DNA from: Elusimicrobiota bacterium
GTDB taxonomy: Bacteria; Elusimicrobiota; Elusimicrobia; UBA1565; UBA9628
Length of the DNA stretch: 64,000 nucleotides
Assembly: GCA_027319565.1 (NCBI GenBank)
Contig: DAHVNA010000001.1
Span: 114,716-178,715, forward strand
Direction of reading: 5' to 3'
The notes below the pieces were generated by a model that was given only the letters and a program-made list of their open reading frames with translations, did not search any database and was not told the origin of the DNA. Every line of letters begins with the position of its first letter. The first letter of the stretch is position 1. This document shows positions 28,484-55,236 of this stretch, in pieces. Both the position numbers and the translations under genes were made by a program.

Positions 28484-28488
28484 CGAAC

Positions 28489-28875
28489 ATGACAAAACAA
28501 AGCCATTCCAAGCTTCTGGTGATCGACGACGACGCCCATCTGCGCGAGAGTTTGGCCGAGGTTTTGGAACTGGACGGATTTGAATGCTTTCAGGCGGGAA
28601 CGGCCAAGGCCGGGCTTGAGAGCGCGGCGAAAATCAATCCCGAGATTGTCATCATGGATATTCAATTGCCGGATTCCTCTGGTTTTCAGATATGCCAGGA
28701 ACTGCGCAAGCGCTCGAAAACGACGATATTGATTATGATGACGGGGCGTTTTTTGTCTTTAGACGAGAAAAAACAGGGTTTTGCCTTGGGCGCGGATGAT
28801 TATTTGACCAAACCTTTCGATATCGTTGAGCTTTCTGCGCGAATCCGGCAAATGCTGACCCGCCGGAAGGGTTAA
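28489..28875 (+). CDS. Single-domain CheY-like response regulator receiver.
   Basis: LLVIDDDAHLRESLAEVLELDGFEC...IVIMDIQLPDSSGFQICQEL...DYLTKPFD, with the canonical DD, D and K residues. Confidence 0.8.
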   Translation: MTKQSHSKLLVIDDDAHLRESLAEVLELDGFECFQAGTAKAGLESAAKINPEIVIMDIQLPDSSGFQICQELRKRSKTTILIMMTGRFLSLDEKKQGFALGADDYLTKPFDIVELSARIRQMLTRRKG

Positions 28876-28886
28876 TCTTAGGCCTC

Positions 28887-36073: not shown

Positions 36074-36078
36074 GGCTT

Positions 36079-37695
36079 TTAAGAGGAGATGGGAGTCGGT
36101 TCTTGTTGATGCGCTTCTTCTGCGGGAGCGGTGTCTGCGCCGTAGAGCGAAATCATTTTGCGCCTTCTCTTCATTTGTCTGCGATAACTAAACGCGCCGT
36201 AGACTAAAAGCATACAGGGTAGGAAAAGAATCATTCCATATTTGACCAGTAGACGCATTTTGTCGGACAAGGGCCTGAGAGGCCGATAGGTCATGCCTTT
36301 CCCGCGAATGGAGAGTAAATCGCTGTCCTCACAAGACCACTCAAGAAGATTTTCCAAAAAGACCGCGCTTGTCTGGCGATTGGCGAAATGAGAATCTAAC
36401 ACGTAAGCGGTCGCAATCACAATGGCCCGCGCGGATTTATGCGGAGTCAAAGATGGGGTTCCCGCAGGAGCGGGAAATTGCCCGGAAACTAACCCCGCCA
36501 GCGAGAAAGGCCCGCGCCGGTCTTTCGCCAAATTGGCGGAACTTTGCGTGATGCCGATGTTGTAGGAATTTTTAAGCCAGCTGTTGGGACTTGAGTCCAC
36601 TAAAGATTCGTATTTGAGTCCATTGACTGCGGCGGTTGAAGCGAAAATGGGGTGCACAAAGGGCAAGGTAACGCCTTGAAGATGCTCGACGGCGGGGTTG
36701 GAAGAATCAAAATGGGTGGCGACCGGTATGTAAGGATATTGCTGAATTCTCATCGCGACAAATTGGCCGATATTTTGTTGAAATTCGACATTTTCCGATT
36801 GGGCGTCGACGACAAAGCCATTGGGAATATTGAGCCCCCAGTCTTTTAGAAGCGGTCCTAAACCCAGACTCATCGGCGCGCTATAAAAGGCTTGGAAATT
36901 AACCGAGCGCCGATTAAAGAGAATTCCCAAGGGCTTTCCTTCAAACAGCCAATTTCTCAGGGCTTCAATGTCTTGGTTTTTAAACTTTTGAGTGGGACCT
37001 AAAATCCACAGAGCCGAGACATCGGAGGGGATTGCGGAGCTAAGATCGACGGTCTTTAAATTGAGGTCTTCCCGAAGCGGAGCAAAGAGGTTAGATGCCG
37101 AGGGGTCTCCCGGGTTTTTTTCGCCATGCCCAACGACAAAGCCTACGGTCGGAAGGACCGGATCGGCGAGTTTTTTGATGCGGCTGGTGATTTGATACTC
37201 CAAATCGGAGGTGTCTTGTAAAAAGGGAATAACCTGACTGCGCCCTTTATAAAGGAGAGCGATTCCCATATAGGCGGTTTTGACCTCGAATTTATCTTTG
37301 GCCATCACGTTCACCTGGACCGGGGAAATGCCCAGCGCCTGAGCGTCGTCTTTTCTTTTTTGAGATTCGTTGGGATCCAAAAATTCAACCGTAATATGCC
37401 CGTGGGCCGCAGATTTATATTCGCCTAAGAGATCGCGGAGATAATTTTCATTGAGCCCGTAGGGCGGGGGAAGATTCGGAGTGAAATAGACCTTGACGAT
37501 CAGGTTGTCGGTTAATTTTGAGAGGATATGTTTAGTTCCCTTGGATATGGAGAAGATGTGTCCGGAGGAAAAATCCATTCGGGAATAAACGTAATAGGAA
37601 ATTCCGTTGACGGCGGCCAATGTCCCAATCAAAAGCAAAGTGCCTAAGCCGGAAAACAGAAGTTGCCGGAATTTGGTCTTGGGTTCTTGAGACAT
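36079..37695 (-). CDS. GldG-like ABC-transporter auxiliary component (ABC_transp_aux domain), bitopic at both ends.
   Basis: N-terminal TM, large periplasmic domain and C-terminal TM (ILFLPCMLLVYGAFSY), the GldG architecture. Start overlaps the permease stop. Confidence 0.65.
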   Translation of the reverse strand: MSQEPKTKFRQLLFSGLGTLLLIGTLAAVNGISYYVYSRMDFSSGHIFSISKGTKHILSKLTDNLIVKVYFTPNLPPPYGLNENYLRDLLGEYKSAAHGHITVEFLDPNESQKRKDDAQALGISPVQVNVMAKDKFEVKTAYMGIALLYKGRSQVIPFLQDTSDLEYQITSRIKKLADPVLPTVGFVVGHGEKNPGDPSASNLFAPLREDLNLKTVDLSSAIPSDVSALWILGPTQKFKNQDIEALRNWLFEGKPLGILFNRRSVNFQAFYSAPMSLGLGPLLKDWGLNIPNGFVVDAQSENVEFQQNIGQFVAMRIQQYPYIPVATHFDSSNPAVEHLQGVTLPFVHPIFASTAAVNGLKYESLVDSSPNSWLKNSYNIGITQSSANLAKDRRGPFSLAGLVSGQFPAPAGTPSLTPHKSARAIVIATAYVLDSHFANRQTSAVFLENLLEWSCEDSDLLSIRGKGMTYRPLRPLSDKMRLLVKYGMILFLPCMLLVYGAFSYRRQMKRRRKMISLYGADTAPAEEAHQQEPTPISS

Positions 37696-38447
37696 TAGCT
37701 AATTCTCCTGTGACTGAGCTTTTGCGCGGTCAGATAGAGAAAGATGAAGATAAACGACGCGAAATAGAGAATATCCCGGGTATCCAAGACGCCTTTTCCC
37801 ATCGTCTGCATGTGGGAATCCAACCCGATGAAATCAAGGATGCTCGAAAGTCCGGTGGGAAGAAAAATGGCGAATTTTCCGATCACGACAAAGCTAAATC
37901 CGATTAAGAAAGCGGTGATGAAAGACACGATCTGGTTTTTGCTAAAAGAAGAGGTGTAGAGCCCCGCCGCTCCAATTAAGAGACCTTCAAAAGTCAACGC
38001 GCAAAGAGTTCCGATGGATTCTCCCCAATCCAGATGGGCCGGAGGGGCCACCAAAAACGCGAGACCAACCGCGAAAAACAAAAGCGCGGCAATGACGAGG
38101 GTATAAAGAGAAGCAAAGCCGAGATACTTTCCCAGGACGATATCCCAATCTTCTAACGGGAAAGTGGCCAGCGTTTCAAAAGTTCCGGATTTTAATTCTT
38201 CCGAGAGAAGGCCCATGGTCAAGGCCGGGACAAAGAAAGAGAGGATGATGGGCTCAAAGTCGATGAGGGTTTTAATGGTCGCCTGCCCGACCAGGAAAAG
38301 AGGCGCCATAAACAAATACCCAGTTAGAAGATAAAAAACAAACAAAGCGACATAGGTCGACGGCGATTCCAAAGCGACGCGAAGGCCCTTGTGCGCCAGG
38401 GCTTTGACGGCGTGAACTTGAAACAGCGGTTCTTCTTGCGTTTTCAT
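37695..38447 (-). CDS. ABC-2 family permease (GldF-like).
   Basis: Six TM helices with the ABC-2 pattern. Lies between the ATPase and the GldG-like gene. Confidence 0.65.
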   Translation of the reverse strand: MKTQEEPLFQVHAVKALAHKGLRVALESPSTYVALFVFYLLTGYLFMAPLFLVGQATIKTLIDFEPIILSFFVPALTMGLLSEELKSGTFETLATFPLEDWDIVLGKYLGFASLYTLVIAALLFFAVGLAFLVAPPAHLDWGESIGTLCALTFEGLLIGAAGLYTSSFSKNQIVSFITAFLIGFSFVVIGKFAIFLPTGLSSILDFIGLDSHMQTMGKGVLDTRDILYFASFIFIFLYLTAQKLSHRRIS

Positions 38448-38452
38448 TTTGA

Positions 38453-39385
38453 TTAGTTTTGAGTGAGGTTCCTGAAAATCTCTTCCAGATCTTGCCTGTC
38501 TTTTCTTAATTCCAAAATCGGCCAGCGTTTTTCAGCGGCCAGGTTGAAGAGATCTTCCCGAACGTCGGTCTTGGCCGAGGCGTCAAAATAAAACCCCGGT
38601 TCCTTGGGGTTGTGGATGGCCTCTTCTGCCGATGACACGCCGGGCAGTTTTCTTAAAGCGGATAAAATTTCGGAGGCCGGCCCTTTGAGAGAAACAAAAA
38701 AACGGATTTGAGAGTTTTTTCCGCCGGAGCTGATTTCTTCTGAGCTTCCCTCCGCGACCAAGCGTCCGTTGTTGATGATGATGAGCCTATCGCAGAGGAC
38801 TTTCGCCTCCGAGAGAATATGGGTTGAAAAAAGAACGGTCTTTTCCCGTCCAAGTTCGCGGATGAGATCTCGTACTTCATGAACCTGATTGGGGTCCAGG
38901 CCCGAGGTCGGTTCATCCAGGATGAGAACTTCCGGGTCATGGAGAATCGCTTGCGCCAGGCCCACGCGCTGGCGAAAACCTTTAGAGAGTTCGCCGATTT
39001 TCCGCCCCAAGGCGGATCTGAGCCCGCAGGCTTTGACGGCATAGGCAATGCGCTCGCGCTTTTTTTCGCCGGAGATTCCTCTTAGATGTGCGGCTAATTC
39101 TAAACTCTCCGCGACTTCCAAGTCTTCATAGAGAGGATTATTCTCTGGCAAATAGCCCAAATGGCGGCGCGCTTCCATGGGGTTTTCTGAAACATCAAGA
39201 TCGAGAATCTTCGCGTGCCCATCGTCTGCCGGGAAAAAAGAAGTCAAAAGCCTCATCGTGGTCGTCTTTCCCGCGCCGTTGGGACCGAGAAATCCGACAA
39301 TACGGCCTTGCTCGACTTTGAAGCTTAAATCGTCGACAGCAGTTCTTTCTCCAAATTTTTTCTTTAAACGAATCGCTTCAATCAT
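38453..39385 (-). CDS. ABC transporter ATP-binding protein (GldA-like).
   Basis: Walker A GPNGAGKTTT. Signature LSKGFRQRVGLA. Walker B LILDEPTSGLD. H-loop. Confidence 0.9.
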   Translation of the reverse strand: MIEAIRLKKKFGERTAVDDLSFKVEQGRIVGFLGPNGAGKTTTMRLLTSFFPADDGHAKILDLDVSENPMEARRHLGYLPENNPLYEDLEVAESLELAAHLRGISGEKKRERIAYAVKACGLRSALGRKIGELSKGFRQRVGLAQAILHDPEVLILDEPTSGLDPNQVHEVRDLIRELGREKTVLFSTHILSEAKVLCDRLIIINNGRLVAEGSSEEISSGGKNSQIRFFVSLKGPASEILSALRKLPGVSSAEEAIHNPKEPGFYFDASAKTDVREDLFNLAAEKRWPILELRKDRQDLEEIFRNLTQN

Positions 39386-39520: not shown

Positions 39521-42500
39521 TTGAAAGGAGGGGCTTTGGGCTTGCTTTGGTCGTTATTTTTGTGGGGGAATCAGCTTTGTTTTCCCCAGGCTGCGGCAAT
39601 CCCGCCGGAGATGACTCTCAACACCCAAGCTCAACAGCTTTATCTCTCCGCGGGAAATTTTTTTCAAACCCAAGATTACGCCCATGCCGCCGATCAATAC
39701 CAAGAATTCTTAAAACGCGATCGCGATCAACCCGATCGTCTTGAGGCCCAGATGATGCTGGCGGAAAGCCTTTACCGGCAAGGCATTGCGCAATTGTCTT
39801 TGTCTCCTAAGCGCGCGGCAAAGATTTTTAAGCAGGCGAAAAAGGCTTATAAGAAAGTGTCTCGGGACTCTCCAAGCGGGGACTATCTGGCGGAGAGCGC
39901 GCGGTTTCGAATCGGGGAAATGGCCTTTAACCTTGGCCAATATGACGAGGCCGTTTCGGATATGGAAAGTTTGGTTTCCGATTACCCTCTAGGCACGTTG
40001 AGAGGCGAAGCCCGGTTGCTTGAGGCCGAGGCCTTGATGTCTCAAAAACAGTTCTCAAAGGCGGAGAACTTGCTGGATGAGGCTTTAAAAGAACAACCCT
40101 CTTATGCCGATAATCCGAGACTCAAATTAGTGCGCGGGATCGCTCTTTTTGAAACGGGAAATCCTGCCGCTGCTCTGGCGTCTCTGAGCGGGCTTCAATC
40201 TCCGCTCGCGCTTTTATATTCCGCTCGAGCCAACATGAATCTGGAAAAGCCTTTAATCGCGGTTGAGAACCTTAAGACCCTGATCGCGGATTATCCTGAA
40301 GACCCGGAAGTTGAAATGAGCCGTTATCTGGTGGGGGAGGCTTTTTTCGAGGCCAGAGACTACACCTCGGCAGCCCAGGTCTTTAACCAGTTTCTGATGG
40401 ATTATCCGCGTAGCTCTTTGCGCGGGGCGGCGACTTATAAAATGGGCTTATGCAGTTATAACCTTAAAGATTATATGGCGGCGCGCGGAGACTTTGAGTC
40501 GGTTGAACAAATGAGTCCGCCTGGAGAATTCGCCGAGCCGAGCCTCTACATGATGGGCGAATCTTTTCTAAAGGAAGGAAACTATACCAAAGCCGGTTTT
40601 GATTATTCCGATTTATCCTCCGCTTATTCCAATCGCTTGGCCGGAACCGCTCAATTTAAGCTGGCTTGGACCCAATATAAGCGGCAGGAATATCCGGAGG
40701 CCCATGTCACGCTCAATTCGTTCATTGTCCGCTATTCATCGCATCCATTAGTTCCAGCGGCGGCGTATCTCAATGGAAATACTTTAGGAAGCGAGGGTAA
40801 ATATCGCCAGGCGGCTCACGCCTATCAACAATCCTTAGACTTGGCGGCTTCCAATCTCTATCCCTATCGGAGTTTAATTTTAAACCCGGCCTTGGCCATG
40901 CTTAGCCGCTCCTATTTGGAAGCCGGAGAATACGGCCATTTGATCTCCGGTTATCAATACGTCCTTAAGGAAAATGCCCCCACCCAGGATCCTTGGCGCG
41001 CGGCCGCTCTCCTTTATATAGCGGAGGGATATTACCGGCAGGGGCTTTATGATCAGTCTCTTTCGATTTACAAGGAAATCATCCATTCCTATCCTGCGAC
41101 TCCGGAATCCATTGTCGCAAAGGATGGAATCAGTTGGTGTCTTTTTAAACAAGGGCATTTTTCTCAATCTTATCAGAAGCGCGTTGAACTGGAGGCCTTG
41201 AAGAACGCGCCGGCGATTGCCCCGTCTAAGACCGTTGTCGTCAATGAAAATCCGGGCGCCGATTTGTTTTTAAACAACCAGTATGCCGAGGCGGTCACTC
41301 TTTTTAATCAGAAAAAATATGCCGACGCCTTGGACGCCTTTGAGCGGTTTGAAAAAGATTACGCCCAGGACCCGCGCGCGGCCGATGCCGCTTTGGAAGA
41401 GGGTTGGTGCTATTACCGCCTCAATTATTACGGTGACGCCGTTAAAACCTGGGAAAGGGTGGAAGCGAGTTATTCGTCTTCTGAAGCCGCCAAATCCGCG
41501 GCCTGGGCCACGGCCGACACTTATTTTAGAGCCGCTCAATACGACAAAGCCGTGGCGGCCTATCAACATATACTCCAAACCTATCCGGATGACGCCGCTT
41601 CTTCATATGCCCGGCTTCGCATCGCCCAAAGTTATTACAACGCGAAAAATATTCCCCAGGCCATCTCTGCGTTTGAGGATGTTTTGAATAATTCTCCTGG
41701 AGACAAGGAGGGTCAACAGGTTCTGGATTATTTAACGCAGATGCTTTATCAGCCCGAATCTAAAGACGCGGCCTTAAAGGCTCTTCAATCTTTGGCGAGC
41801 TCCCAATCTTCGAACTCTTTTGGAGCGAGAGCGGAACTGGGTTTGGGGCTTTATTTTTTCGAGACGGGAGATTATACCAGCGCGGTTCAAAACTTAGAGG
41901 AAGCGATCCCCAACCTTTCGCGGGACAAAGATATTCGCGACGCCCAGTATGATTTGGCCCAATCTTATTACGCCTTAAAGCGCTATGAGGATGCGGAAAG
42001 GGCTTATCAGCGCTTTACGGAAAACTATCCTGACGATTCGCGTCTGAGAGCGGCTTTGTTTCGCATGGGAACCTCGGCGTTCAATTTAAAGGATTTCGAA
42101 AGAGCGGCCGCGGCTTTCCATCAGTTGGCGGCGCAGTATCCAAAGTCTCATTACGCCGCCTTGGCCCTCTACAACTCTTCCTTGGCCTATCGAAAATTGG
42201 GCGATTGGGAATCGGCGGCCTTGGCCTTGAAAAATTATATCGCTCTTTATCCGCAGCAGGCTCAAAAATCAAGCGCGCCATCGGAACTGGCTTCCGTTTA
42301 CGAGGAACAACGAGACTATGGAAAAGCGATTAAGCAGCTGGAGTCCGAAAAGAGCTCTCTTAAAAGCGATGACCCTGTTTTCCTAGAGACCAGTCTTGAG
42401 ATCGCCAAGGATTACGCGGCGATGGGAGATGATGCCGATTCTCTGAAAGAATACCAAGCCATCGAGGCTAGCCCGCTTAAGAGTAATCCCTACCGTTTAA

Positions 42501-42727
42501 ACGCCTTGGCCGATTTGGGCCGCTTCTATGAAGATAAAAAAGAGTGGAGCCTTGCGGCAAAGACCTATGAGGAGTTGTCTTTGAGCACCAACGATCCCAG
42601 TTGGCGCGATCCCGCCAAAGCTCGCGCAGAAGCGGATCGCGAAAAAGTTTCCAAGACCGTTTCGGCTGATTCCAATCAGAATCAAGTTCAGAATTCTTCC
42701 GCGCCGGCGGGAGGAGGGGCGCAATGA
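39521..42727 (+). CDS. Very large TPR-repeat protein (CpoB/YbgF-like repeats), probably periplasmic.
   Basis: N-terminal hydrophobic signal-like segment. TPR-like repeats across 1068 aa (e.g. QAQMMLAESLYRQGI, AAYLNGNTLGSEGKYRQAAHAYQQSL, AQYDLAQSYYALKRYEDAERAYQRF). The start may lie at in-frame TTGs at 39536 or 39542, since the SD falls inside the annotated start. Confidence 0.75.
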   Translation: MKGGALGLLWSLFLWGNQLCFPQAAAIPPEMTLNTQAQQLYLSAGNFFQTQDYAHAADQYQEFLKRDRDQPDRLEAQMMLAESLYRQGIAQLSLSPKRAAKIFKQAKKAYKKVSRDSPSGDYLAESARFRIGEMAFNLGQYDEAVSDMESLVSDYPLGTLRGEARLLEAEALMSQKQFSKAENLLDEALKEQPSYADNPRLKLVRGIALFETGNPAAALASLSGLQSPLALLYSARANMNLEKPLIAVENLKTLIADYPEDPEVEMSRYLVGEAFFEARDYTSAAQVFNQFLMDYPRSSLRGAATYKMGLCSYNLKDYMAARGDFESVEQMSPPGEFAEPSLYMMGESFLKEGNYTKAGFDYSDLSSAYSNRLAGTAQFKLAWTQYKRQEYPEAHVTLNSFIVRYSSHPLVPAAAYLNGNTLGSEGKYRQAAHAYQQSLDLAASNLYPYRSLILNPALAMLSRSYLEAGEYGHLISGYQYVLKENAPTQDPWRAAALLYIAEGYYRQGLYDQSLSIYKEIIHSYPATPESIVAKDGISWCLFKQGHFSQSYQKRVELEALKNAPAIAPSKTVVVNENPGADLFLNNQYAEAVTLFNQKKYADALDAFERFEKDYAQDPRAADAALEEGWCYYRLNYYGDAVKTWERVEASYSSSEAAKSAAWATADTYFRAAQYDKAVAAYQHILQTYPDDAASSYARLRIAQSYYNAKNIPQAISAFEDVLNNSPGDKEGQQVLDYLTQMLYQPESKDAALKALQSLASSQSSNSFGARAELGLGLYFFETGDYTSAVQNLEEAIPNLSRDKDIRDAQYDLAQSYYALKRYEDAERAYQRFTENYPDDSRLRAALFRMGTSAFNLKDFERAAAAFHQLAAQYPKSHYAALALYNSSLAYRKLGDWESAALALKNYIALYPQQAQKSSAPSELASVYEEQRDYGKAIKQLESEKSSLKSDDPVFLETSLEIAKDYAAMGDDADSLKEYQAIEASPLKSNPYRLNALADLGRFYEDKKEWSLAAKTYEELSLSTNDPSWRDPAKARAEADREKVSKTVSADSNQNQVQNSSAPAGGGAQ

Positions 42728-42781: not shown

Positions 42782-42855
42782 CGTCACCCCGGCAGGTCTT
42801 AAGCCGGGGTCCAGCCTCTTTGTGGGTTTGGATTCCGGCAACAGCCGGAATGACG
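42782..42855 (-). repeat. REP/MITE-like double-hairpin element, copy 2, in inverse orientation to copy 1. It lies in the 5' leader / N-terminal extension of the FlgD-Ig gene.
   Basis: The reverse complement reads CGTCATTCCGGC-TGTT-GCCGGAATCCAAACCCACAAAGAGGCTGG-ACCCCGGC-TTAAGACCT-GCCGGGGTGACG, the same architecture as copy 1 at 17452-17526. Confidence 0.7.
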
Positions 42856-45800
42856 AAAATGCAAAATGTAAGCAAGAATTGGAGACTCTACGCTAGGGGA
42901 AAATGGCTTGCCATTTTCTTCTTCTTGATCGCCTTTTTATGGCCAAGGAATCTTCATGCCAAATCATCTCCATTAGAGCCCCCCAGCCTGATTTTTTCGC
43001 CCGCTGGAAACGGATCTCGAAAAACTCTTTCTTTTGTCGTTAATCTGCCGGAGACCGCCGAAGTCTCTAGCTGGCGTTTTGAGATTCGAGAGAAGGGAAA
43101 CAAAGACCTTCCCGGCGCCCTTGTCAAAGCATTTTCCGGTGATGGACGCCCGCCTCAAAAGATTGTCTGGGATGGAAAAGACACCCAAAACCGGGTGGTC
43201 GAGGATGGAACTTATTATTATTCGTTGAGCCTTCAGACCCCGGCTGGAAATCAAGCCGCGATTCGCCTTTCTCCGGTGATTGTCGACCGCGTTCCTCCCA
43301 CTATTTCGGCCAAGGTCCATCCCAGAATTTTTTCTCCCAACGGTCTTAAGCCGGAGACCGTTTTTACTTTGAAAGCTTCCGATCAGTACGGAATTTATGA
43401 ATGGCTGCTTGAAATTAAAGGTTCCGATGGGGTGCCGGTCAAGTCTTGGATGGGAAAAGGGCGTCCGCCCGCGGCCGTGCGTTGGGATGGGAGAGGAGAT
43501 TTTAATGAAGACGTGCCGAACGGGACCTATACCTTTCAGCTCACGGTTGAGAACCTGGCTTCAAATCGCGCGGTCACGCCGCCCCAGACGGTGACGGTTA
43601 AAAGGCAAGGCGTGGTTTCAACCGTGGGAGTGACTCCGGACGTTTTTTCCCCGCATAAAGAGAAACCGATCGCGAGTTTTGATATTACCGGCGGCGATCC
43701 TTCCTCGGTTGAGCGTTGGGAGCTCAAAATTATCAACCAAGCCGGCAGGCCCGTCTTTTCTTTCAAAGGCAATGGGGCTCCACCCGCGCGTCTTGACTGG
43801 AATGGGGATATTTCTAAGGATAAGACCGCGCCTGACGGGGCTTATCAAGTTATCTTATATGAGACCGACAATGCCGGGAACACCGCCGCTTCCGCTCCGG
43901 AACCCCTCTATGTCGATACAAAGCCGCCTCTTTTGGAAGCGCGCCTGGAGCCGGATTTGTTGAGTCCGGGAAAACAGCGCGAAAATTCCCAAGGGATTTT
44001 TAAATTGCGCGCTGAGAGCCGATATCCGTTTAAATGGGCCCTTAAAATTTATACCGATGTCGGAGAACCGGTCAGAACTTGGAGCGGGAAAATGGGGTCA
44101 AGAGTCCCGAACCAAATTTTGTGGCACGGCAATAACGACTCCGGGCAGATTGTCACCGACGGGACCTATTCTTATTCCCTTTGGGCTTCTGATATCGCCG
44201 GAAATGAAGGGGAAACTCCGCGGCAAAAATTCGTGGTGAACACGACTCCCCCGGCTCTGTCTGTTTCAGCGGATCATGCCCTTTTTTCTCCCAATGGCGA
44301 CCCCACTCTGAGCCACGTCGTTTTTAGTTTGAGCGCCCAGGATGCCAGTCCCTTCGCGAGCTGGGCTCTTTTGATTAACGATTCAAGCGGCAATCTTGTT
44401 CGCGAATTCACCGGATCTCCGCTCAATATTCCGGAGAGCGTCTCATGGAACGGGAAAAGCAAAGACCGCGAACCGCTTCCGGACGGGACCTACTCCTATG
44501 CGCTCGAGGCGAAAGATATCGCGGGAAATTCCGCCAAGACTAGTCCCCAAAATATCGTTATTGGAGCGACCAAGCCCATTCCTCGGGTGTCTTCTTCTCT
44601 GGACGCTATCTCGCCCAATGCCGATGGATTTAAAGACACGACCGATTTCCATTTGAGCGTCAAATCCTTCAATCCGGTTGAAAAATGGTTTCTTAGGATT
44701 TTTGATGAAGACAAGGTCGCGCGCCGGACCTTTGAAGGGCAGGGAGACGTTCCCGGAACCATCCAATGGGGCGGCGAGGGAGACGATCAAAAAACGCTTC
44801 CGGACGGGAGATATTCTTATCAGCTGGAAGTGGTCGACGCCGCCGGAAACACCAGCAAGACCCGCCTTAAATCTATTTTGATCAACACAACGCCGCCCAC
44901 AATTAAAATTACCGCCGACCCTGCTCTTTTTTCGCCGAAACCGACGGCGCCTCATTTTAGCTCTTCGACCATGTTTGTCCTAGGCTATCAAGATGTCAGC
45001 CCGGTCATGAGATGGAAAGTGATCATTCAGGACCCGATGAAAAATAATGTTCGCGTTTTTTCCGGAAATTCTTCTTTTCCGCGGTCAATTTCCTGGTATG
45101 GGCGTTCCAGCTCCAGAAAGATTTTACCGGACGGGCCCTACACCTATACTCTTTTCGCGGAAGATGATGTTGGCAATAAGTCGACCACCTCCGAGCAGAT
45201 TTTGCGCTTGGACGGCTCTTCTCCCCAGGTGAGTTTGAGAGCGGACCCCACGCTTTTTTCGCCCGGGACGGGCTCTCAGAAAAACGAGACGACTCTATTG
45301 TTGGGATATAAGGCCAAGGCCGACATCTCTAAATGGAAATTGTCCATTGACTTAAAAAAGGGAGAAGTCGCGCGCGTTTTCTCGGGCCTTGGGCGTCCGC
45401 CGCAAAATATCCCATGGGACGGGAAAAACGCCTACGGGCGCATTCTTCCCGATGGGACTTACGACGCGTTTTTGAAAGTCATTGACGAAGTCGGCAACGA
45501 GGGGCTTAGCCCCGCCGCTAAAATCACGATCGACACCTCAAAACCAGTCGCCACTGTCGTCGCCCAAACCGAGCAGTTGGAAGACCTAAGCGTTCCTCTG
45601 ACCGTTACGAAAGACGCGGACAAGGATATCGTTATTTCCTTGGCCAGCGAGGTCCTTTTTGATAGCGGCAAGTCGACTTTAAAAGATGCGGCCGACAATA
45701 CCCTTTTAAGAGCCGCCTATCTTATTAAGCGTTATCCCCATCGCGCCGTTTTAATTAATGGGTATACCGACAATGTGCCAATCCATGACGCGTCGTTTAA

Positions 45801-46023
45801 AAACAACCAACAGCTTTCAAAAGCGCGGGCCGAGGCCGTAATGAAGTTCTTGGCCTTTAAGGCGAATATTCCCGCCTCTCGGATGAAAGCCCAGGGCTTT
45901 GGGGATAAAAATCCTATCGCCTCTAACGACGATCCCGAGGGCCGGCAAAAGAACCGCCGCGTGGAAATTGTTTTGACCAGCAATACCCATCGATCTCATG
46001 CGACTAAGGAGGAGAATCAATGA
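42850..46023 (+). CDS. Giant envelope protein with a signal peptide, about 8 tandem FlgD-Ig-like domains and a C-terminal OmpA_C peptidoglycan-binding domain (Pal-like anchor).
   Basis: Likely start MTKMQNVSKNWRLYARGKWLAIFFFLIAFLWPRNLHA (signal peptide). The ORF-track start at 42724 reads through the REP element. Repeats carry FSPNG..., W(D/N)G(K/R)..., PDGTY.Y and DxAGN motifs (e.g. IVWDGKDTQNRVVEDGTYYYSL; ILWHGNNDSGQIVTDGTYSYSLWASDIAGN). OmpA_C: LFDSGKSTLKDAADNTLLRAAYLIKRYPHRAVLINGYTDNVP...SKARAEAVMKFL...RRVEIVL. Confidence 0.75.
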   Translation: MTKMQNVSKNWRLYARGKWLAIFFFLIAFLWPRNLHAKSSPLEPPSLIFSPAGNGSRKTLSFVVNLPETAEVSSWRFEIREKGNKDLPGALVKAFSGDGRPPQKIVWDGKDTQNRVVEDGTYYYSLSLQTPAGNQAAIRLSPVIVDRVPPTISAKVHPRIFSPNGLKPETVFTLKASDQYGIYEWLLEIKGSDGVPVKSWMGKGRPPAAVRWDGRGDFNEDVPNGTYTFQLTVENLASNRAVTPPQTVTVKRQGVVSTVGVTPDVFSPHKEKPIASFDITGGDPSSVERWELKIINQAGRPVFSFKGNGAPPARLDWNGDISKDKTAPDGAYQVILYETDNAGNTAASAPEPLYVDTKPPLLEARLEPDLLSPGKQRENSQGIFKLRAESRYPFKWALKIYTDVGEPVRTWSGKMGSRVPNQILWHGNNDSGQIVTDGTYSYSLWASDIAGNEGETPRQKFVVNTTPPALSVSADHALFSPNGDPTLSHVVFSLSAQDASPFASWALLINDSSGNLVREFTGSPLNIPESVSWNGKSKDREPLPDGTYSYALEAKDIAGNSAKTSPQNIVIGATKPIPRVSSSLDAISPNADGFKDTTDFHLSVKSFNPVEKWFLRIFDEDKVARRTFEGQGDVPGTIQWGGEGDDQKTLPDGRYSYQLEVVDAAGNTSKTRLKSILINTTPPTIKITADPALFSPKPTAPHFSSSTMFVLGYQDVSPVMRWKVIIQDPMKNNVRVFSGNSSFPRSISWYGRSSSRKILPDGPYTYTLFAEDDVGNKSTTSEQILRLDGSSPQVSLRADPTLFSPGTGSQKNETTLLLGYKAKADISKWKLSIDLKKGEVARVFSGLGRPPQNIPWDGKNAYGRILPDGTYDAFLKVIDEVGNEGLSPAAKITIDTSKPVATVVAQTEQLEDLSVPLTVTKDADKDIVISLASEVLFDSGKSTLKDAADNTLLRAAYLIKRYPHRAVLINGYTDNVPIHDASFKNNQQLSKARAEAVMKFLAFKANIPASRMKAQGFGDKNPIASNDDPEGRQKNRRVEIVLTSNTHRSHATKEENQ

Positions 46024-46634
46024 TTCATATTAATTTTTTGGAAATTCTAAAAACGAGTTTTACCCTGGTCATATTGCTTTTTTGCTCCTTGGTGACCATG
46101 ACTTTCGCCATTGAGAGATGGTGGTATTACCGCTCGGTCAGAATCGACGTCGAAAAATTCATGACGGCAATCAAAGAATTTTTGGAGGCCCACAAACACG
46201 CGGAAGCCCTCAATCTCGCGTCGAATTCTCCGGGGCCTGTCGCGGCAATAGTCCGCATCGCCCTTTTAAATCGCAGTCGCCCTAAAAGCGAGGCCGCCGC
46301 CCTTTTAAGCGCCGCGCAGATTGATGAAAGGGGAAAACTGGAGCGTTATCTCGGCATTTTGGGAACCATGGGAAATACCGCGCCGTTTATTGGCCTCTTT
46401 GGAACCGTGGTGGGAATTATTAAGGCTTTTCATGATTTGGCTCTTTCCGGATCGGGAGGGCCTTCGGTCGTCGCTGCGGGAATCGCGGAAGCGCTGGTGG
46501 CGACGGCCAGCGGGCTTGCGGTCGCTATTCCATCGGCGATGCTCTATAACTATTTTGTCAAAAAGGTCAAGGATATCGCTTCTGACATGGAAGCTTCCTC
46601 GATTCGGATTCTAGTTTATTTGGGGCTTAGCTGA
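46020..46634 (+). CDS. MotA/TolQ/ExbB-family proton channel.
   Basis: Three TM segments. LGILGTMGNTAPFIGLFGTVVGIIKAF and GIAEALVATASGLAVAIPSAMLYNYF. Start overlaps the upstream stop. Confidence 0.85.
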   Translation: MIHINFLEILKTSFTLVILLFCSLVTMTFAIERWWYYRSVRIDVEKFMTAIKEFLEAHKHAEALNLASNSPGPVAAIVRIALLNRSRPKSEAAALLSAAQIDERGKLERYLGILGTMGNTAPFIGLFGTVVGIIKAFHDLALSGSGGPSVVAAGIAEALVATASGLAVAIPSAMLYNYFVKKVKDIASDMEASSIRILVYLGLS

Positions 46635-47050
46635 TGCAGACCGGTTCTTCAAACAACTCGATTATCACCGACATCAATGTAACTCCCTTGGTCGACGTCT
46701 GCTTGGTTTTAGTGATTATTTTCATGGTGGTAGCGCCGCTGGCGATGCAGGCTTCCATTGAAGTCGCTTCTACCCGGGTCGGAGCGCCCAAAGCTCGGGC
46801 GGCTTTGACCAAGAATGTCGACGTGGTTTTGGACGCGCGGGGAACGGTCACGATTAATGGAACTCCGGTGGCTTGGGAGAATCTGCCCCAGGCGTTGAGA
46901 AAGGCGATTTCCCGTAGCCAGGATCGCTTGGTCGGGCTTAAGGCTTCTCCCAAGGCGCCTTTAGGCAAGGTGGTTGAGATTTTAGATGATTCCAAACAGA
47001 ACGGCGCTAAAAAAGTAGCCTTGATCAATCCCAAAGAAGGAGGAAGTTGA
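46634..47050 (+). CDS. ExbD/TolR-family protein, paralogue 1.
   Basis: ITDINVTPLVDVCLVLVIIFMVVAPL is the ExbD/TolR TM. Periplasmic domain. Start overlaps the ExbB stop. Confidence 0.85.
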   Translation: MQTGSSNNSIITDINVTPLVDVCLVLVIIFMVVAPLAMQASIEVASTRVGAPKARAALTKNVDVVLDARGTVTINGTPVAWENLPQALRKAISRSQDRLVGLKASPKAPLGKVVEILDDSKQNGAKKVALINPKEGGS

Positions 47051-47469
47051 TGGCGATAGGGCAAGGAAAGTCGGGCGAGCCGATTACCTCGATTAACATC
47101 ACGCCCTTAGTGGATGTCAGCCTTGTTTTGGTCATTATTTTTATGGTCGCCGCGCCGCTTTTAACACAGCCGATTTTGCCGGTTCAGCTTCCTAAAGCCG
47201 TGACGGATGAGGGAAAGGAAAGAGAAAATATCACGATTACGATTACCAAGGACGGCCAATGGGCGCTCAATGCCGATCCGACGACTCCTGAAACTCTTCC
47301 CTCGGTTTTGCCCTCGCTTTTGGCGAAAAATAAAGATAAATACGTGATCATCCGGGCGGATGCCGATTCTCCCTATTCCTACACTTTGGAAGCGCTTAAA
47401 ATCGCGAAAGCGGCCGGGGCCAAGGATTATGCGGTGGCGACAGTCGAGAAAAAGAGAGTATCTCCGTGA
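47047..47469 (+). CDS. ExbD/TolR-family protein, paralogue 2.
   Basis: ITSINITPLVDVSLVLVIIFMVAAPL. Second adjacent ExbD paralogue. Start overlaps the upstream stop. Confidence 0.85.
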   Translation: MMAIGQGKSGEPITSINITPLVDVSLVLVIIFMVAAPLLTQPILPVQLPKAVTDEGKERENITITITKDGQWALNADPTTPETLPSVLPSLLAKNKDKYVIIRADADSPYSYTLEALKIAKAAGAKDYAVATVEKKRVSP

Positions 47470-48587
47470 GTAAGGATGCGACTAGGCTTGAGACTTCGGC
47501 GGGTTTAGCCGCCGCTATTCATGCTTCCCTTTTCGGGCTCTATCTTTTGCTCAAAGCAACCGCGCCTACCGAAGAGATGGTGAAGCTAACCCGGGTTGAT
47601 TTTATCGATGAAATTCCCCAAGCCGCGCCTACTACTTCTGCCAATCCCGGTCGGCTTGAACGCGCGCCCAAAAGCTTCAAGGATTTTCTTCATATGGCCC
47701 TTCCCTCGTTTCACGCTCCAAGCCCGCCCCAAGCCAAGTTGGAAGAAATGCAAACCAGCCCCGCTTTAAACTCGCCCAAAGAGACTTTGCCTTCTCCCCG
47801 TATCACGCTTAAAACCAGCGCTAATTCCGTTCATATGAATTTTCGCTTTGCGCCCGCTCATTTAAAATCGGCGGATTCGCATTTGTCGGATATCTCTTCC
47901 CCGCAAGCAGTTCCACAAGAAACGCCCCAAGACATGCCAAATTCAAAGCCGATTGCGTTAGAGGCGGTTGGAAAGGTCAAGGTTTCAGGGCAAATTCATT
48001 TTAATCAAGCGGCGCATTTTAAGAGTTCGGATCAAATACGAGATTTGCCTCAGGAAAATTTGGCGGCCTCGGGACCCGCGGCGCTGGAAGATTCTCAGCC
48101 CGGGGCGATTCAATTAAATTCCAGCTATCACGCGGCAAGCAGATCCGCCTTGCCTTCCGGCGGAGACTTGCCCATCGGCTATGATAAAGGAATTTCCTTG
48201 AAAGAGGGGGCGGTTCATCCCGCGGGAGCGAATTTGCCGCAAGCTTCTCTTGCGCCTGCCGCGACAAAACCGGGCAAGCTTAAAAGCGTCAATCATAAAG
48301 GCATGGAGATTAGCGGTCCCTTGGCGGACCGGAAGATTTTAAAAGCGGCGGCGCCGCGCTATCCCAATTGGGCGAAAAGCCAAGGAGTGGAAGCCGATGT
48401 CATCGTCCGTTTTTATGTTTCGCCCGAGGGGCGGGTTTTAGACCGAATGATTATCGAAAGGACCTCGGGATACCAAAGGCTTGATGAACTGTGCAAAAAA
48501 ACTCTCAAGAAAATGCTTTTTGCCCCGCTTGAAAAAGGCGATCAGGTCGAATGGGGGTATATCACCTTTCATTTCAAATTAAAATGA
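47466..48587 (+). CDS. TonB/TolA-like energy-transducing protein: N-terminal TM, long linker and TonB_C domain.
   Basis: TM LAAAIHASLFGLYLLL. C-terminal VEADVIVRFYVSPEGRVLDRMIIERTSGYQRLDELCKKTLKKMLFAPLEKGDQVEWGYITFHFKL matches TonB_C. Confidence 0.7.
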   Translation: MSKDATRLETSAGLAAAIHASLFGLYLLLKATAPTEEMVKLTRVDFIDEIPQAAPTTSANPGRLERAPKSFKDFLHMALPSFHAPSPPQAKLEEMQTSPALNSPKETLPSPRITLKTSANSVHMNFRFAPAHLKSADSHLSDISSPQAVPQETPQDMPNSKPIALEAVGKVKVSGQIHFNQAAHFKSSDQIRDLPQENLAASGPAALEDSQPGAIQLNSSYHAASRSALPSGGDLPIGYDKGISLKEGAVHPAGANLPQASLAPAATKPGKLKSVNHKGMEISGPLADRKILKAAAPRYPNWAKSQGVEADVIVRFYVSPEGRVLDRMIIERTSGYQRLDELCKKTLKKMLFAPLEKGDQVEWGYITFHFKLK

Positions 48588-48596
48588 GATAAAGCC

Positions 48597-49196
48597 ATGG
48601 CTCAAGAAAGCTCGCAATTGACCTTAAACCGCCGAAGGCGCTATTTTATCGATACGGAAATTCAATTGCCGCTGACCCTGGGTCTTATTTTTATCGCGAC
48701 GGTTGAGGGAGTTTTCGTGGGATGGGGGCTCAGCCGGATTATTCATCTTGCCTTTGATTGGCAGAATGCTCGCCAGATTTTAGAATTCTTCGCTTTTCTT
48801 GTCATGACTTTCTTGCCGATGGTCCTCATTAATTTTTGGCTGAGCGCATGGTTTACCCATCGGATGATTGGGCCGCTCTCAAGGGCGCGCAAAGCGCTGT
48901 CTTCCGTTGTAGAGGGAAATTTGGAATGCGAGATTATTCCCAGGGAAGGCGACTTTCTCCGCCATTATCTGGAAGACGTCAACTCGGCCGTGCGGACCTT
49001 AAAACGCCTCATTTACCGAGATCATCAATACGTTCAGGAAACAGTCGAACTCTTAAACCAGTGCCGCGATAAAATCGAGAGTAGCGGCCTTCCCAGCGAG
49101 GCGAAAAACGATCTTCAAAAACTCATTTCCCAAGCCAAAAGCCGCCTGAGTATTGTCAATGTCCATTTCGTGCGTCACCGAGGGGATAAGACATGA
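48597..49196 (+). CDS. Membrane protein with two TM segments and a HAMP-like domain. No output domain.
   Basis: TM1 LTLGLIFIATVEGVFVGWGL. TM2 FAFLVMTFLPMVLINFWLSAWF. The HAMP-like helix pair follows: HRMIGPLSRARKALSSVVEGNLE. Confidence 0.45.
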   Translation: MAQESSQLTLNRRRRYFIDTEIQLPLTLGLIFIATVEGVFVGWGLSRIIHLAFDWQNARQILEFFAFLVMTFLPMVLINFWLSAWFTHRMIGPLSRARKALSSVVEGNLECEIIPREGDFLRHYLEDVNSAVRTLKRLIYRDHQYVQETVELLNQCRDKIESSGLPSEAKNDLQKLISQAKSRLSIVNVHFVRHRGDKT

Positions 49197-49573
49197 AAAA
49201 AACAGATGAAGCGGTCTTGATCGTAGATGATGACGATGGCATGCGGGAGTTGGCCGAAGTGATGTGTAAGCAGATGAAGCTTAAAACTTTCTCCGCTTCG
49301 GACACCGTCGCCGCCCGGCGCTATCTTGAAGAAAATATCCCGCGCTTGATTCTTCTCGACATCATGATGCCGGACGGAAACGGCATCGAGTTTTGTCAGT
49401 GGATGCGTTCGCAAGAGGAGTTTAAAAATGTTTCAATTATCGTAACAAGCGCTTTAAAAGAAGAAGAAACGATTCAAGACGCTTTTAAAGTCGGCGCCAA
49501 TGACTTTTTGTCAAAGCCCTTCGAGGTGGTGATTTTTATGGAGAAACTGGGACGTTGGATTAAAGATAAATGA
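49193..49573 (+). CDS. Single-domain CheY-like response regulator receiver.
   Basis: VLIVDDDDGMRELAEV...LILLDIMMPDGNGIEFCQWMR...DFLSKPF. Confidence 0.8.
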   Translation: MKKTDEAVLIVDDDDGMRELAEVMCKQMKLKTFSASDTVAARRYLEENIPRLILLDIMMPDGNGIEFCQWMRSQEEFKNVSIIVTSALKEEETIQDAFKVGANDFLSKPFEVVIFMEKLGRWIKDK

Positions 49574-50544
49574 GAGCGGCTATTTTAGCTTGTTTGTTTT
49601 TTGGAGGCGTTCTCTTTGCCGCGGCGGATTCTCAAAACGGCGGGAATGCCGCGAGCGGGCAAGGAGTGTTGCCGGAGGTCCTCATCGAAGCCGAGCATAA
49701 CAAGCCTTTGCCGTTGTCCAAACCACCCTTGAGTTTTGATGTCAAGGAAGACCAGCCAATCGAAAAGATTCTCAAACAAACGGACCGTTCTTTGATGAAT
49801 CGTCTTCCTTCTCAAATACTAAAATCAAACGTCTTTAAGCCAGAGATTTCAGTCAGCTCTCGGGTTATTATTCCGTCCCAGATTTGGATTGTCCGGCCTT
49901 GGGCGGGAGATTTCGCGCATGTTTTTCACCCGCAAAATATCCTATCAAGCATTCACGCCTTTGAAGATAATCGAAACGAGCGCAAGAAGGCAGTTTGGGA
50001 AATGGACGTGGTCGATGGAGAGGGAAAATCAATCCAGCATTTTTCCGGTTCCGGAGTCGTGCCCAAGCGGATACCCTTTGACGGGAAAGACAAGGATGGA
50101 AAATGGATCGAAGTCGGAGAGACCTACATGGGAGTTCTCAAAAACACCGATTCTCAAGGCAGGATTCATACCGCCTACGGCCGTCCTTTTAAAATAGCGG
50201 GGCTCAGCCTCAAGAATTCTTCCTCTTTTTCTATCGACTTGGACGCGGGAGTTCTTTTTTCCACCTCTTCTGCCGTTCTTGAGTTTTCTCCCTTCGGGCG
50301 GGAACTGATTGTAGAAGCCGCCCAGTTGCTGCAAAGATATTATCCCGGCTTTTCGGTTGCGGCATCTCTTTCGAGCAAACGCTTAAATTCCCAAGAACTT
50401 AAAAAAGCCGTTTCCCTGTGCGCCGAGGAAATCGCAAATAGACTCATTATTTCCTCGTCTAATATCCGAAAGAGTTGGAACCGTCAAGATGCGGGAGGAG
50501 AGGGAGTTCTCGCCATTTCAGTCCAATCCCAGGCTCGGCCGTAA
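49570..50544 (+). CDS. Secreted hypothetical protein with one FlgD-Ig-like domain.
   Basis: Signal peptide MRAAILACLFFGGVLFAAA. VWEMDVVDGEGKSIQHFSGSGVVPKRIPFDGKDKDGKWIEVGETYMGVLKNTDSQGR matches the W..G...P..i.fDGkd..G..v..G.Y pattern. Confidence 0.4.
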   Translation: MRAAILACLFFGGVLFAAADSQNGGNAASGQGVLPEVLIEAEHNKPLPLSKPPLSFDVKEDQPIEKILKQTDRSLMNRLPSQILKSNVFKPEISVSSRVIIPSQIWIVRPWAGDFAHVFHPQNILSSIHAFEDNRNERKKAVWEMDVVDGEGKSIQHFSGSGVVPKRIPFDGKDKDGKWIEVGETYMGVLKNTDSQGRIHTAYGRPFKIAGLSLKNSSSFSIDLDAGVLFSTSSAVLEFSPFGRELIVEAAQLLQRYYPGFSVAASLSSKRLNSQELKKAVSLCAEEIANRLIISSSNIRKSWNRQDAGGEGVLAISVQSQARP

Positions 50545-51185: not shown

Positions 51186-52436
51186 TTAGATGAGAAGTCC
51201 TGCGATGGCCGCGCTTAAAAAGCAGGTTAAAGAACCCGCGATCCAAGCATAAACTCCAAGGCGCGCCAGGTCTTTTCTGCGCTTGGGAGCCAAGACTCCG
51301 ATTCCTCCGATTTGAATTCCGATAGAGAGAAGATTTGAAAAACCGCACAGAGCGTAGGCGGCGATGATTTGAGAGCGCATATCCAAGGCTTGGCGAACAG
51401 ACAAGATTTTGGACATATCGGTGTAGGCTACAAATTCATTGAGAATCGTCTTTTCCCCCATTAAAAACCCCACGGTTTTACAATCTTTCCAGGGAACTCC
51501 CAATATCCACGCAATCGGAGACAAGGCTCGGCCCAAGATGAATTCAAGCCCGATGTCGGGGCGCCCGAAATAGCCGAAGATAATGTGAAGCCCGGCATTA
51601 ATCATCGCCAGCATCGCCATGAAGGCAATTAGCATGGCCGCAACGTTGAGCGCGAGTTTGAGCCCGGTCTCGGCTCCGCTTGCCGCCGCTTCCAAGACAT
51701 TGGAGTCGGTGTTAGAGTTGAGTTTTGGAATAAAACCGCTGGTTTCCGGGGTTTGGGTCTCAGGAATGATCAGTTTTGAGATGACCAATGAGCCAATGGC
51801 GGATAAGACGCTTGCCGCTAAAAGATGGCCGGCGATATCGGGAATGTAGGCTTTTAAAAGCCCGACATAGGCGATCATGACTCCGCCTGAAATCGTCGCC
51901 ATTCCAGCCACCATCACGCAGAATAACTCGGATTCCGTCATGTTTTCTAGATAGGGTTTGACTAAAAGCGGGGCCTCTGTTTGTCCCATAAAGACGTTGG
52001 CGGCGGCGTTGAGGGTTTCCGCGCCCGAGGTTTTTAAAGCGCGTTTCATGAGATGGGCCATGAGCGAAATTACCCATTGCATAATTCCCAGATAATAAAA
52101 AACGGACATCAGCGAAGAAAGAAAAATAACGCTGGGCAAGACTTGGAAGGCGAAGAAAAATCCGATAGAACCGGATTGCCCCGGCGGAATCGACAGCGCG
52201 TTAAAGACAAATTTTCCGCCTTCTTCTTGAAAGGCCAAGAGGCTGGTGACCAAATCGTTGACCTTGGCAAAAACCCAGTGTCCGCTTGCGGTCTTTAAAA
52301 TGAGGAGTGCGAAAATAAATTGAAGGAAAACCCCCCAGCCGACCACGGCCCAATTAATTTTTTTCCCGCGGCCGCCAAGCAGGCGCGCAAACAACAGCAT
52401 TGCGATAATGCCAAAGAAGCTCATCAGCCTAGGCAT
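51186..52436 (-). CDS. nupC: Concentrative nucleoside transporter (NupC/CNT family).
   Basis: Nucleos_tra2 motifs: NVFMGQTEAPLLVKPYL, GFIPKLNSNTDSNVLEAAASGAETGLKLALNVAAMLIAFMAMLA and GVPWKDCKTVGFLMGEKTILNEFVAY. Confidence 0.8.
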   Translation of the reverse strand: MPRLMSFFGIIAMLLFARLLGGRGKKINWAVVGWGVFLQFIFALLILKTASGHWVFAKVNDLVTSLLAFQEEGGKFVFNALSIPPGQSGSIGFFFAFQVLPSVIFLSSLMSVFYYLGIMQWVISLMAHLMKRALKTSGAETLNAAANVFMGQTEAPLLVKPYLENMTESELFCVMVAGMATISGGVMIAYVGLLKAYIPDIAGHLLAASVLSAIGSLVISKLIIPETQTPETSGFIPKLNSNTDSNVLEAAASGAETGLKLALNVAAMLIAFMAMLAMINAGLHIIFGYFGRPDIGLEFILGRALSPIAWILGVPWKDCKTVGFLMGEKTILNEFVAYTDMSKILSVRQALDMRSQIIAAYALCGFSNLLSIGIQIGGIGVLAPKRRKDLARLGVYAWIAGSLTCFLSAAIAGLLI

Positions 52437-55232: not shown

Positions 55233-55236
55233 TTTA

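Follow-up and report, generated by a model that had tools for sequence, protein, structure and literature searches.

An eight-repeat Ig-like OmpA protein among ExbB/ExbD/TonB-type motor genes of an Elusimicrobiota bacterium

Why is a large protein, built of tandem immunoglobulin (Ig)-like modules and a peptidoglycan-binding domain, encoded in the middle of a gene set for a proton-driven envelope motor? This question is raised by a stretch of 64,000 nucleotides (nt) from an Elusimicrobiota bacterium (assembly GCA_027319565.1, contig DAHVNA010000001.1, positions 114,716 to 178,715), which is referred to as the window. The gene at 42850..46023 of the window encodes this protein (the giant), which has eight Ig-like repeats and a C-terminal OmpA_C domain. 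Two smaller proteins, p2 (5152..6978) and p3 (49570..50544), carry the same kind of module once. We consider it somewhat better than an even chance that the giant is a wall-anchored rod in a Ton-type motor system, in which p3 is the partner of TonB. The features discussed are listed in Table 1.

Domain plan of the giant and age of its repeats

The giant has exactly eight tandem modules with a period of 105-109 amino acids (aa), as given by the positions of two motifs: xSP (at aa 49, 161, 266, 371, 479, 587, 694, and 803) and WxG (at aa 107, 212, 317, 425, 533, 640, 749, and 856). Pairwise identity among the eight aligned repeats is 31% on average (range 23-41%), and a hidden Markov model (HMM) built from the eight copies recovers eight domains with i-E values of 1e-35 to 1e-39. 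An earlier sequence-only reading of this DNA counted about eight repeats before a classic OmpA_C domain, which is confirmed by the motifs, the HMM, and Pfam. It took the module to be about 95 aa long; the measured length is about 107 aa.

In its DNA the giant gene has no tandem repeat; nothing but the PDGTY codons comes back, every 321-327 nt. This rules out both an assembly artefact and a recent duplication, so the array is old. Homologues with names assign the window to Elusimicrobiota, and each of the 26 full-length orthologues from this phylum (1015-1052 aa, 37-95% identity) likewise carries eight repeats. Repeat i best matches repeat i at 8/8 positions in orthologues with 52% and 48% identity, at 7/8 positions with 41%, and at 4/8 positions with 37% identity, where the positional signal fades. 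This repeat-by-repeat orthology indicates that the eight-fold array predates the split of these lineages and that each position is individually conserved; the duplications are old, as the sequence-only reading supposed. Relatives in Spirochaetota (1200-1800 aa) have 7-13 detectable modules plus OmpA, without positional correspondence to the repeats of the giant. Among the candidates scored in one search, 344 relatives of the giant are found at E <= 1e-10, and the design of FlgD_ig repeats with OmpA is abundant in Elusimicrobiota and Spirochaetota.

Which family do the repeats belong to? The best Pfam family is FlgD_ig (PF13860), the Ig domain of the FlgD hook cap, with 128.6 bits (cut-off 27) and six of the eight repeats matched as separate stretches. 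CHU_C (110.7 bits) and Big_13 (110.6 bits) follow closely on the same repeats, so that the label is not exclusive. A two-repeat profile, made from repeats 5-6 of 17 orthologues and searched against PDB sequences, matches solved FlgD structures with E values of 1.6e-5 to 8.5e-4 (e.g., 7eh9, 1.6e-5; 7bhq, 2.3e-5; 3c12, 1.1e-4). It scores better on FN3-type domains from the cell-envelope and C5a peptidases of streptococci (E 1.4e-9) and on SiiE (3.3e-8). When the whole giant is searched against the PDB with phmmer, only OmpA domains are returned and the repeats match nothing. The AlphaFold2 (AF2) model of repeats 5-6 (pLDDT 91.3) shows two beta-sandwiches in tandem. Its structural neighbours are generic Ig/FN3/PKD sandwiches (e.g., PorU, Vpr, RbmA, and SiiE). 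Of the solved tandem structures SiiE is the closest, and the top 60 neighbours do not include FlgD. The name FlgD_ig, as used in the sequence-only reading, is therefore valid as a family label for a common sandwich fold, of the Ig/FN3-like type and not an unrelated one, and has no flagellar meaning. The giant lacks the N-terminal domain of FlgD, and a literature search on PF13860/FlgD_ig returned nothing on this architecture. A flagellar role is ruled out, since the gene set around the giant has no flagellar genes and FlgD is absent from the top structural matches. A C-terminal sorting signal of the type IX secretion system (T9SS) is also ruled out, since the CHU_C matches map to the internal repeats.

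On the C-terminal domain, Pfam OmpA (PF00691) scores 67.7 bits, above the cut-off of 27.2, and among PDB sequences the domain matches YiaD (E 2e-23), MotB, and Omp38, and also MotS, PomB, MotY, and TssL. The residues that bind the wall, TD...N..LS..RA..V, are defined from the structures of Pal and A. baumannii OmpA. The giant keeps this canonical motif as GYTDN...NQQLSKARAEAV, and its OmpA_C domain would fix the C-terminus to peptidoglycan.

The start of the gene needs a comment. From the ATG at 42850 the giant has 1057 aa, and the frame is open upstream to another ATG at 42724, 126 nt further, which overlaps the stop of the preceding TPR gene (ATGA). The public gene call P0284 starts at this upstream ATG and gives 1099 aa, and the 42 additional residues are missing from the orthologues. 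The N-termini of the orthologues favour a start at or near 42850, beginning with a signal peptide; in 11/11 of those compared, repeat 1 starts right behind a short signal peptide. No lipobox is found in the giant or in the five orthologues scanned, and the giant has no Cys residue. An outer-membrane lipid anchor is therefore absent.

The motor cassette and the single-module proteins

The giant gene belongs to a cassette of nine genes. In two distant Elusimicrobiota metagenome-assembled genomes (loci L001 and L003), whose giants are 41% and 48% identical to that of the window, the order is TPR protein (1020-1083 aa), giant, ExbB, ExbD, ExbD, TonB_C, p3 (312-319 aa), a protein of about 195 aa, and a receiver. 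The TPR gene is directly upstream of the giant gene in four loci (L001-L004). The window has the same nine genes, but here p3 comes behind the 199-aa protein and the receiver (compare L001 15693..17657 and L003 15666..17724). In relatives, the gene for TonB_C is immediately upstream of the p3-family gene in all five informative loci (L001, L003, L008, L009, and L011). L008, L009, and L011 are short contigs with p3-family members of about 20% identity, and L010 is too short to show the upstream gene. A contig scan with the alignment of giant orthologues drew its patterns from the OmpA domain. Most of its matches are generic OmpA proteins spread over many phyla, only L012 and L083 are relevant, and the scan is unfit for synteny statistics.

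No TonB-dependent barrel transporter is encoded in the cassette of the window, L001, or L003. Similarly, no TolB-like beta-propeller is found in the cassette, among the 39 window proteins scanned against Pfam, or in L001 or L003. The 199-aa membrane protein matches no Pfam family above the cut-off. Two membrane helices are predicted in it, and the helical segment behind them (GPLSRARKALSSVVEGNLE...) has, by eye, a HAMP-like look. That it is paired with a stand-alone receiver hints that the system is regulated.

Searched against all 401 window open reading frames (ORFs) of at least 60 aa, the repeat HMM matches, besides the giant, only p3 (E 3.2e-9) and p2 (E 3.2e-5); the next best ORF has E 0.4. 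Over 99 columns of hhalign alignment, the module of p3 matches the giant repeats with a probability of 97.3% (E 1.7e-11) and that of p2 with 93.9% (E 1.6e-7). The single modules that the sequence-only reading noticed in both proteins are therefore real, even though Pfam FlgD_ig misses them at E <= 0.1.

In p3 the module is a family trait. It is present in all p3 relatives tested, e.g., in the orthologues of L001 and L003 (31-36% identity) at E 4e-14 and 3e-11. With a p3 profile, an exhaustive HMMER search finds 429 relatives, which include both p3-like proteins of about 300 aa and multi-repeat FlgD_ig-OmpA proteins. Some of these alignments span the last repeat into OmpA (for example, query 144-292 on 1096-1246 of a 1296-aa protein). 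When 49 p3-like relatives are run against Pfam, 4 match OmpA and 9 match FlgD_ig. An HMM of these 49 proteins matches the eight repeats of the giant, and also its OmpA domain at i-E 3.1e-14. The narrow p3 family matches OmpA weakly by hhalign (21%), and p3 itself has no direct Pfam OmpA match. In the AF2 model of p3, aa 115-324 are moderately confident and the C-terminal domain has the order beta-alpha-beta-alpha-beta-beta. In the PDB, Foldseek finds the OmpA-like domain of PA0833 as the best match (template modelling score, TM 0.62), followed by OprF, Omp38, and MotB. Since look-alikes such as IspF and RusA are also returned, the fold alone is weak evidence. The wall-binding motif TD...N..LS..RA is lost from the sequence of p3.

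The first 90 or so mature residues of p3 are modelled as disordered (AF2 pLDDT < 40). In the family alignment this region holds two motifs, EVLIE (family consensus EVVIKGE) and KPPLxI. Among all 7-residue windows of the p3 family, EVVIKGE ranks fourth in conservation (2.44 bits). A loose pattern of this type occurs in 4/401 window ORFs, of which p3 alone has it behind a signal peptide. It is reported that TonB and TolA bind their partners by strand addition to short boxes in disordered N-termini, e.g., ETLTV of colicin M (PMC11658791, PMC12204202). The pairing of the tonB and p3 genes, together with the conserved motif, makes p3 a candidate ligand of the cassette TonB, and EVLIE/EVVIKGE may be the TonB-box-like strand that binds it.

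The other single-module protein, p2, heads a cluster that resembles type IV pilus and type II secretion system (T2SS) clusters. It follows a Wzy_C/TPR gene and precedes genes for PilM/N-like, T2SSB-like, secretin, T2SSE, and T2SSF proteins. Its position at the head of the cluster is conserved in loci L006 and L007. All nine p2 family members match the repeat HMM (E 2.5e-8 to 8.8e-7). The OmpA domain of p2 keeps N..L..RA..V, and AK replaces TD.

The giant, p2, and p3 have a common plan, i.e., a module followed by an OmpA_C-like domain (degenerate in p3), and each is conserved within the gene cluster of its own machine. They therefore look like paralogous wall-anchor adaptors of different machines. 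By analogy, the most likely role of p2 is to fasten the pilus/T2SS-like machine to the wall. The sequence-only reading went further and saw a common scaffold joining the pilus locus and the Tol-like locus. Sharing a widespread Ig-type module does not show a physical scaffold, and this part of the reading lacks support in the form given.

Some other features are seen around p2. Lys/Arg-rich stretches between the module and OmpA (aa 430-500) and in the tail (aa 590-608) are unusual for a periplasmic protein. The 3' end of the p2 gene overlaps the start of the next gene at 6956. This gene (6956..8581, 541 aa) has weak matches to PilM in the N-terminal and PilN in the C-terminal part, which suggests a fused PilM-PilN, and its orthologues in L006 and L007 have 524-547 aa. 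The gene preceding p2 (2824..5064) encodes a membrane protein of the O-antigen-ligase-like type (Wzy_C) whose C-terminal part has TPR repeats, and this pairing is conserved in L006.

What the cassette may do

In the reading that we favour, the giant would be exported by Sec, non-lipidated, and periplasmic. Its C-terminal OmpA_C domain would sit on peptidoglycan, and its eight N-terminal sandwiches would form a rod, about 30 nm long if extended, as judged from the typical size of such domains. The proton-driven ExbB/ExbD motor would pull via the TonB-type arm. The partner of this arm would be p3, a one-module OmpA-like miniature of the giant, and not an outer-membrane transporter encoded at the locus. 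p3 would offer EVLIE as a TonB-box-like strand on its disordered N-terminus. The giant and the TPR protein may then be a wall-anchored scaffold against or along which the force acts, and the giant, the TPR protein, the motor, and p3 would make one envelope system.

This cassette resembles several known systems in part. As in the Ton system, ExbB, ExbD, and TonB_C are present, with the transmembrane Asp of ExbD and the transmembrane His of TonB. In contrast to the Ton system, the conserved gene after tonB in relatives encodes a soluble protein with Ig and OmpA-like domains, and no barrel is found in the cassette. The EVLIE strand of p3 resembles TonB boxes such as ETLTV, which act by beta-augmentation (PMC11658791). 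Gene clusters with the order TPR - tolQ - tolR - tolR - vWA transducer, so far uncharacterised, are reported from the PVC group (Williams-Jones et al. 2025, PMC12204202). The cassette matches them in the order of TPR, one TolQ-like protein, a heterologous TolR-like pair, and a membrane-anchored transducer. It differs in that the transducer ends in TonB_C and not in vWA, the gene for the eight-Ig OmpA protein is inserted between TPR and tolQ/exbB, and p3 follows the transducer. The anchors MotB/PomB, MotY, and TssL/TagL also use OmpA_C to tether a trans-envelope machine to the wall. While those anchors are fused to a membrane helix or a machine subunit, the giant is a separate soluble protein with Ig modules.

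Several points weigh against this reading. The rod would exceed the usual distances between wall and membrane, so its orientation is unexplained. In the window two genes separate p3 from TonB. The likeness of EVLIE/EVVIKGE to a TonB box is judged by eye, and TonB boxes are short and degenerate. The cassette TonB could serve TonB-dependent transporters encoded elsewhere in the genome. The periplasmic location, the rod length, the physical contacts, and the role of the TonB box go beyond domain content and synteny and are what we infer. Finally, the nearest named relative of the giant, Lsa66 of Leptospira, is reported to be surface-exposed (PMC3130794).

A bolder form of the same reading is tentative and, on balance, rather unlikely. 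Here the cassette would be a third kind of proton-motive force transduction besides Ton and Tol-Pal. A TonB paralogue would pull a soluble p3, made of an Ig module and an OmpA-like domain that is dead for wall binding, and would thereby remodel or position the anchored rod and the giant TPR scaffold under the control of the small membrane protein and the receiver.

Does the giant need the motor at all? It may be a stand-alone, wall-bound spacer or strut of the periplasm, with the adjacent motor genes reflecting co-regulation of envelope genes. Spirochaetota relatives with modules and OmpA are common (Spirochaeta africana, for example, has P0110), and the one examined in context (L005) has no ExbBD/TonB genes nearby. 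The Ig-OmpA design can therefore work without a motor, which also counts against the favoured reading. In Elusimicrobiota, however, the giant gene lies tightly between TPR and exbB in every locus examined (41-48% identity), with gaps that are tiny or overlapping, and p3, its one-module miniature, is a constant part of the operon, tied to TonB. A stand-alone strut is thus an unlikely explanation.

It is somewhat less likely again that the locus is the Tol-Pal system of Elusimicrobiota, with the giant as Pal, the TPR protein as CpoB, and the TonB-like protein as TolA, serving outer-membrane tethering and constriction at division. The parts do overlap, since both sets join in one operon a 5:2-type motor (TolQ/ExbB and TolR/ExbD), an arm with a TonB_C/TolA-III-type domain, an OmpA_C wall binder, and a protein rich in TPR_6. 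E. coli TolB presents a box to TolA, and the disordered N-terminus of p3 with its short strand motif is reminiscent of this. The cassette differs in that its OmpA protein has eight Ig domains and, lacking lipobox and Cys, is not a lipoprotein, in having two ExbD/TolR paralogues, and in that no TolB was found among the cassette and scanned window proteins. The label Tol-like given in the sequence-only reading is loose. TolA and TonB are not distinguishable by sequence, which counts for Tol-Pal, but canonical tol-pal loci with a lipoprotein CpoB are reported in Elusimicrobia, which counts against it (both PMC12204202).

Lsa66 (LIC10258 of Leptospira interrogans) has, like the giant, N-terminal FlgD_ig-type modules and a C-terminal OmpA_C domain, and p3 also matches it faintly. 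The best NCBIfam match of the giant is Lsa66_OmpA (NF053608, an equivalog family), with 224.2 bits in five stretches. This is far under the cut-off of 700, so that the giant is a relative and not an equivalog. The Lsa66 family has 581 positions, compared with 1057 aa in the giant, and Lsa66 has been studied as a host-matrix adhesin of a pathogen, without a reported motor-operon context. Laminin, fibronectin, and plasminogen were bound by Lsa66 in vitro, and immunofluorescence showed it on intact cells (PMC3130794). That the giant is likewise a surface fibrillar adhesin, an Ig-like rod projecting outward to external ligands, is very unlikely despite this match and the adhesin SiiE as closest solved tandem structure, since its gene is within an inner-membrane motor operon, OmpA_C binds peptidoglycan beneath the outer membrane, and the giant shows a Sec signal and a wall-binding domain but no barrel, lipid anchor, type I or type V secretion signal, or T9SS C-terminal signal.

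Features of the window and meaning of the locus

Table 1. Features of the giant, the cassette, p3, and p2 in the window
Feature	Position	Strand	Evidence
TPR protein, 1068 aa (TPR_6, TPR_16, YfiO/BamD-like repeats), first cassette gene	39521..42727	+	Pfam
Giant envelope protein, 1057 aa: signal peptide, 8 Ig-like (FlgD_ig-type) modules, linker, OmpA_C	42850..46023	+	Pfam, repeat HMM, orthologues
Sec signal peptide of giant, aa 1-37, predicted signal peptidase I site LHA/KS (cut after LHA)	42850..42960	+	read from sequence
Repeat 1, aa 41-152	42970..43305	+	repeat alignment, HMM domains
Repeat 2, aa 153-257	43306..43620	+	repeat alignment, HMM
Repeat 3, aa 258-362	43621..43935	+	repeat alignment, HMM
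Repeat 4, aa 363-470	43936..44259	+	repeat alignment, HMM
Repeat 5, aa 471-578	44260..44583	+	repeat alignment, HMM, AF2 model
Repeat 6, aa 579-685	44584..44904	+	repeat alignment, HMM, AF2 model
Repeat 7, aa 686-794	44905..45231	+	repeat alignment, HMM
Repeat 8, aa 795-904	45232..45561	+	repeat alignment, HMM
OmpA_C peptidoglycan-binding domain of giant, aa 936-1036	45655..45957	+	Pfam OmpA 67.7 bits, PDB sequence matches, motif
ExbB/TolQ/MotA-type proton channel	46020..46634	+	Pfam MotA_ExbB 109 bits
ExbD/TolR paralogue 1, transmembrane Asp in PLVDV	46634..47050	+	Pfam ExbD 85 bits
ExbD/TolR paralogue 2, transmembrane Asp (PLVDV) present	47047..47469	+	Pfam ExbD 98.7 bits
TonB/TolA-type force transducer: N-terminal transmembrane helix with His (AIHASL), long Pro/Ser-rich linker, TonB_C aa 296-372	47466..48587	+	Pfam TonB_C 42.4 bits
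199-aa membrane protein, conserved cassette member	48597..49196	+	31-34% identical orthologues in L001, L003
Stand-alone response-regulator receiver, conserved cassette member	49193..49573	+	PF00072 on orthologues
p3, 324 aa: signal peptide, disordered N-terminal region with conserved motifs, one FlgD_ig-type module, degenerate OmpA_C-like domain	49570..50544	+	
p3 aa 32-58, GVLPEVLIEAEHNKPLPLSKPPLSFDV: two conserved linear motifs, candidate TonB-box-like strand	49663..49743	+	family alignment
p3 single Ig-like module, aa 115-214	49912..50211	+	hhalign 97.3%
p3 OmpA_C-like domain, aa 215-322, without TD...N..LS..RA motif	50212..50535	+	family HMM, relatives, fold
p2, 608 aa: signal/anchor, low-complexity linker, degenerate OmpA-like domain, Ig-like module, basic linker, OmpA_C	5152..6978	+	
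p2 possible first degenerate OmpA-like domain, aa 184-311 (tentative)	5701..6084	+	hhalign 63%, E 6.8e-5 only
p2 single Ig-like module, aa 328-427	6133..6432	+	hhalign 93.9%
p2 C-terminal OmpA domain, aa 503-579	6658..6888	+	Pfam OmpA 32.4 bits (cut-off 27.2), hhalign 92%

Other genes of the window are noted here. Upstream of the cassette and divergent from it (35102..39385, minus strand) is a set of ABC ATPase, ABC-2 permease, ABC_transp_aux, and DUF4340 genes, which resembles a GldA/F/G-type transporter. This set is not conserved beside the cassette in L001 or L003. The gene at 31909..33975 encodes a 688-aa protein with ankyrin repeats and a caspase-like Peptidase_C14 domain, and comes directly after a histidine kinase/response-regulator cluster (27659..31912). 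The ORFs at 52429..54024 (531 aa), 55183..57450 (755 aa), and 57451..58185 (244 aa) match no Pfam family at E <= 1e-4.

The domain family of the giant is known, and the giant adds a new member to a domain architecture that is likewise known but poorly studied. The gene set that links it to a motor is an uncharacterised variant of Ton/Tol-type systems. Lsa66 is the only studied member of the FlgD_ig and OmpA design and has been treated as a host adhesin. The window shows this Ig-OmpA design in three sizes in one genome, and its eight-repeat form has stayed intact, each repeat in its place, through deep divergence and is locked into an ExbB/ExbD/TonB operon that includes a miniature paralogue. 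Surveys of force transducers leave open the role of TonB paralogues without an attached transporter (PMC12204202), and p3 is a testable candidate for such a role. For the family as a whole the locus is a caution: the OmpA-anchored Ig-repeat proteins of spirochaetes should not be taken for surface adhesins by default.

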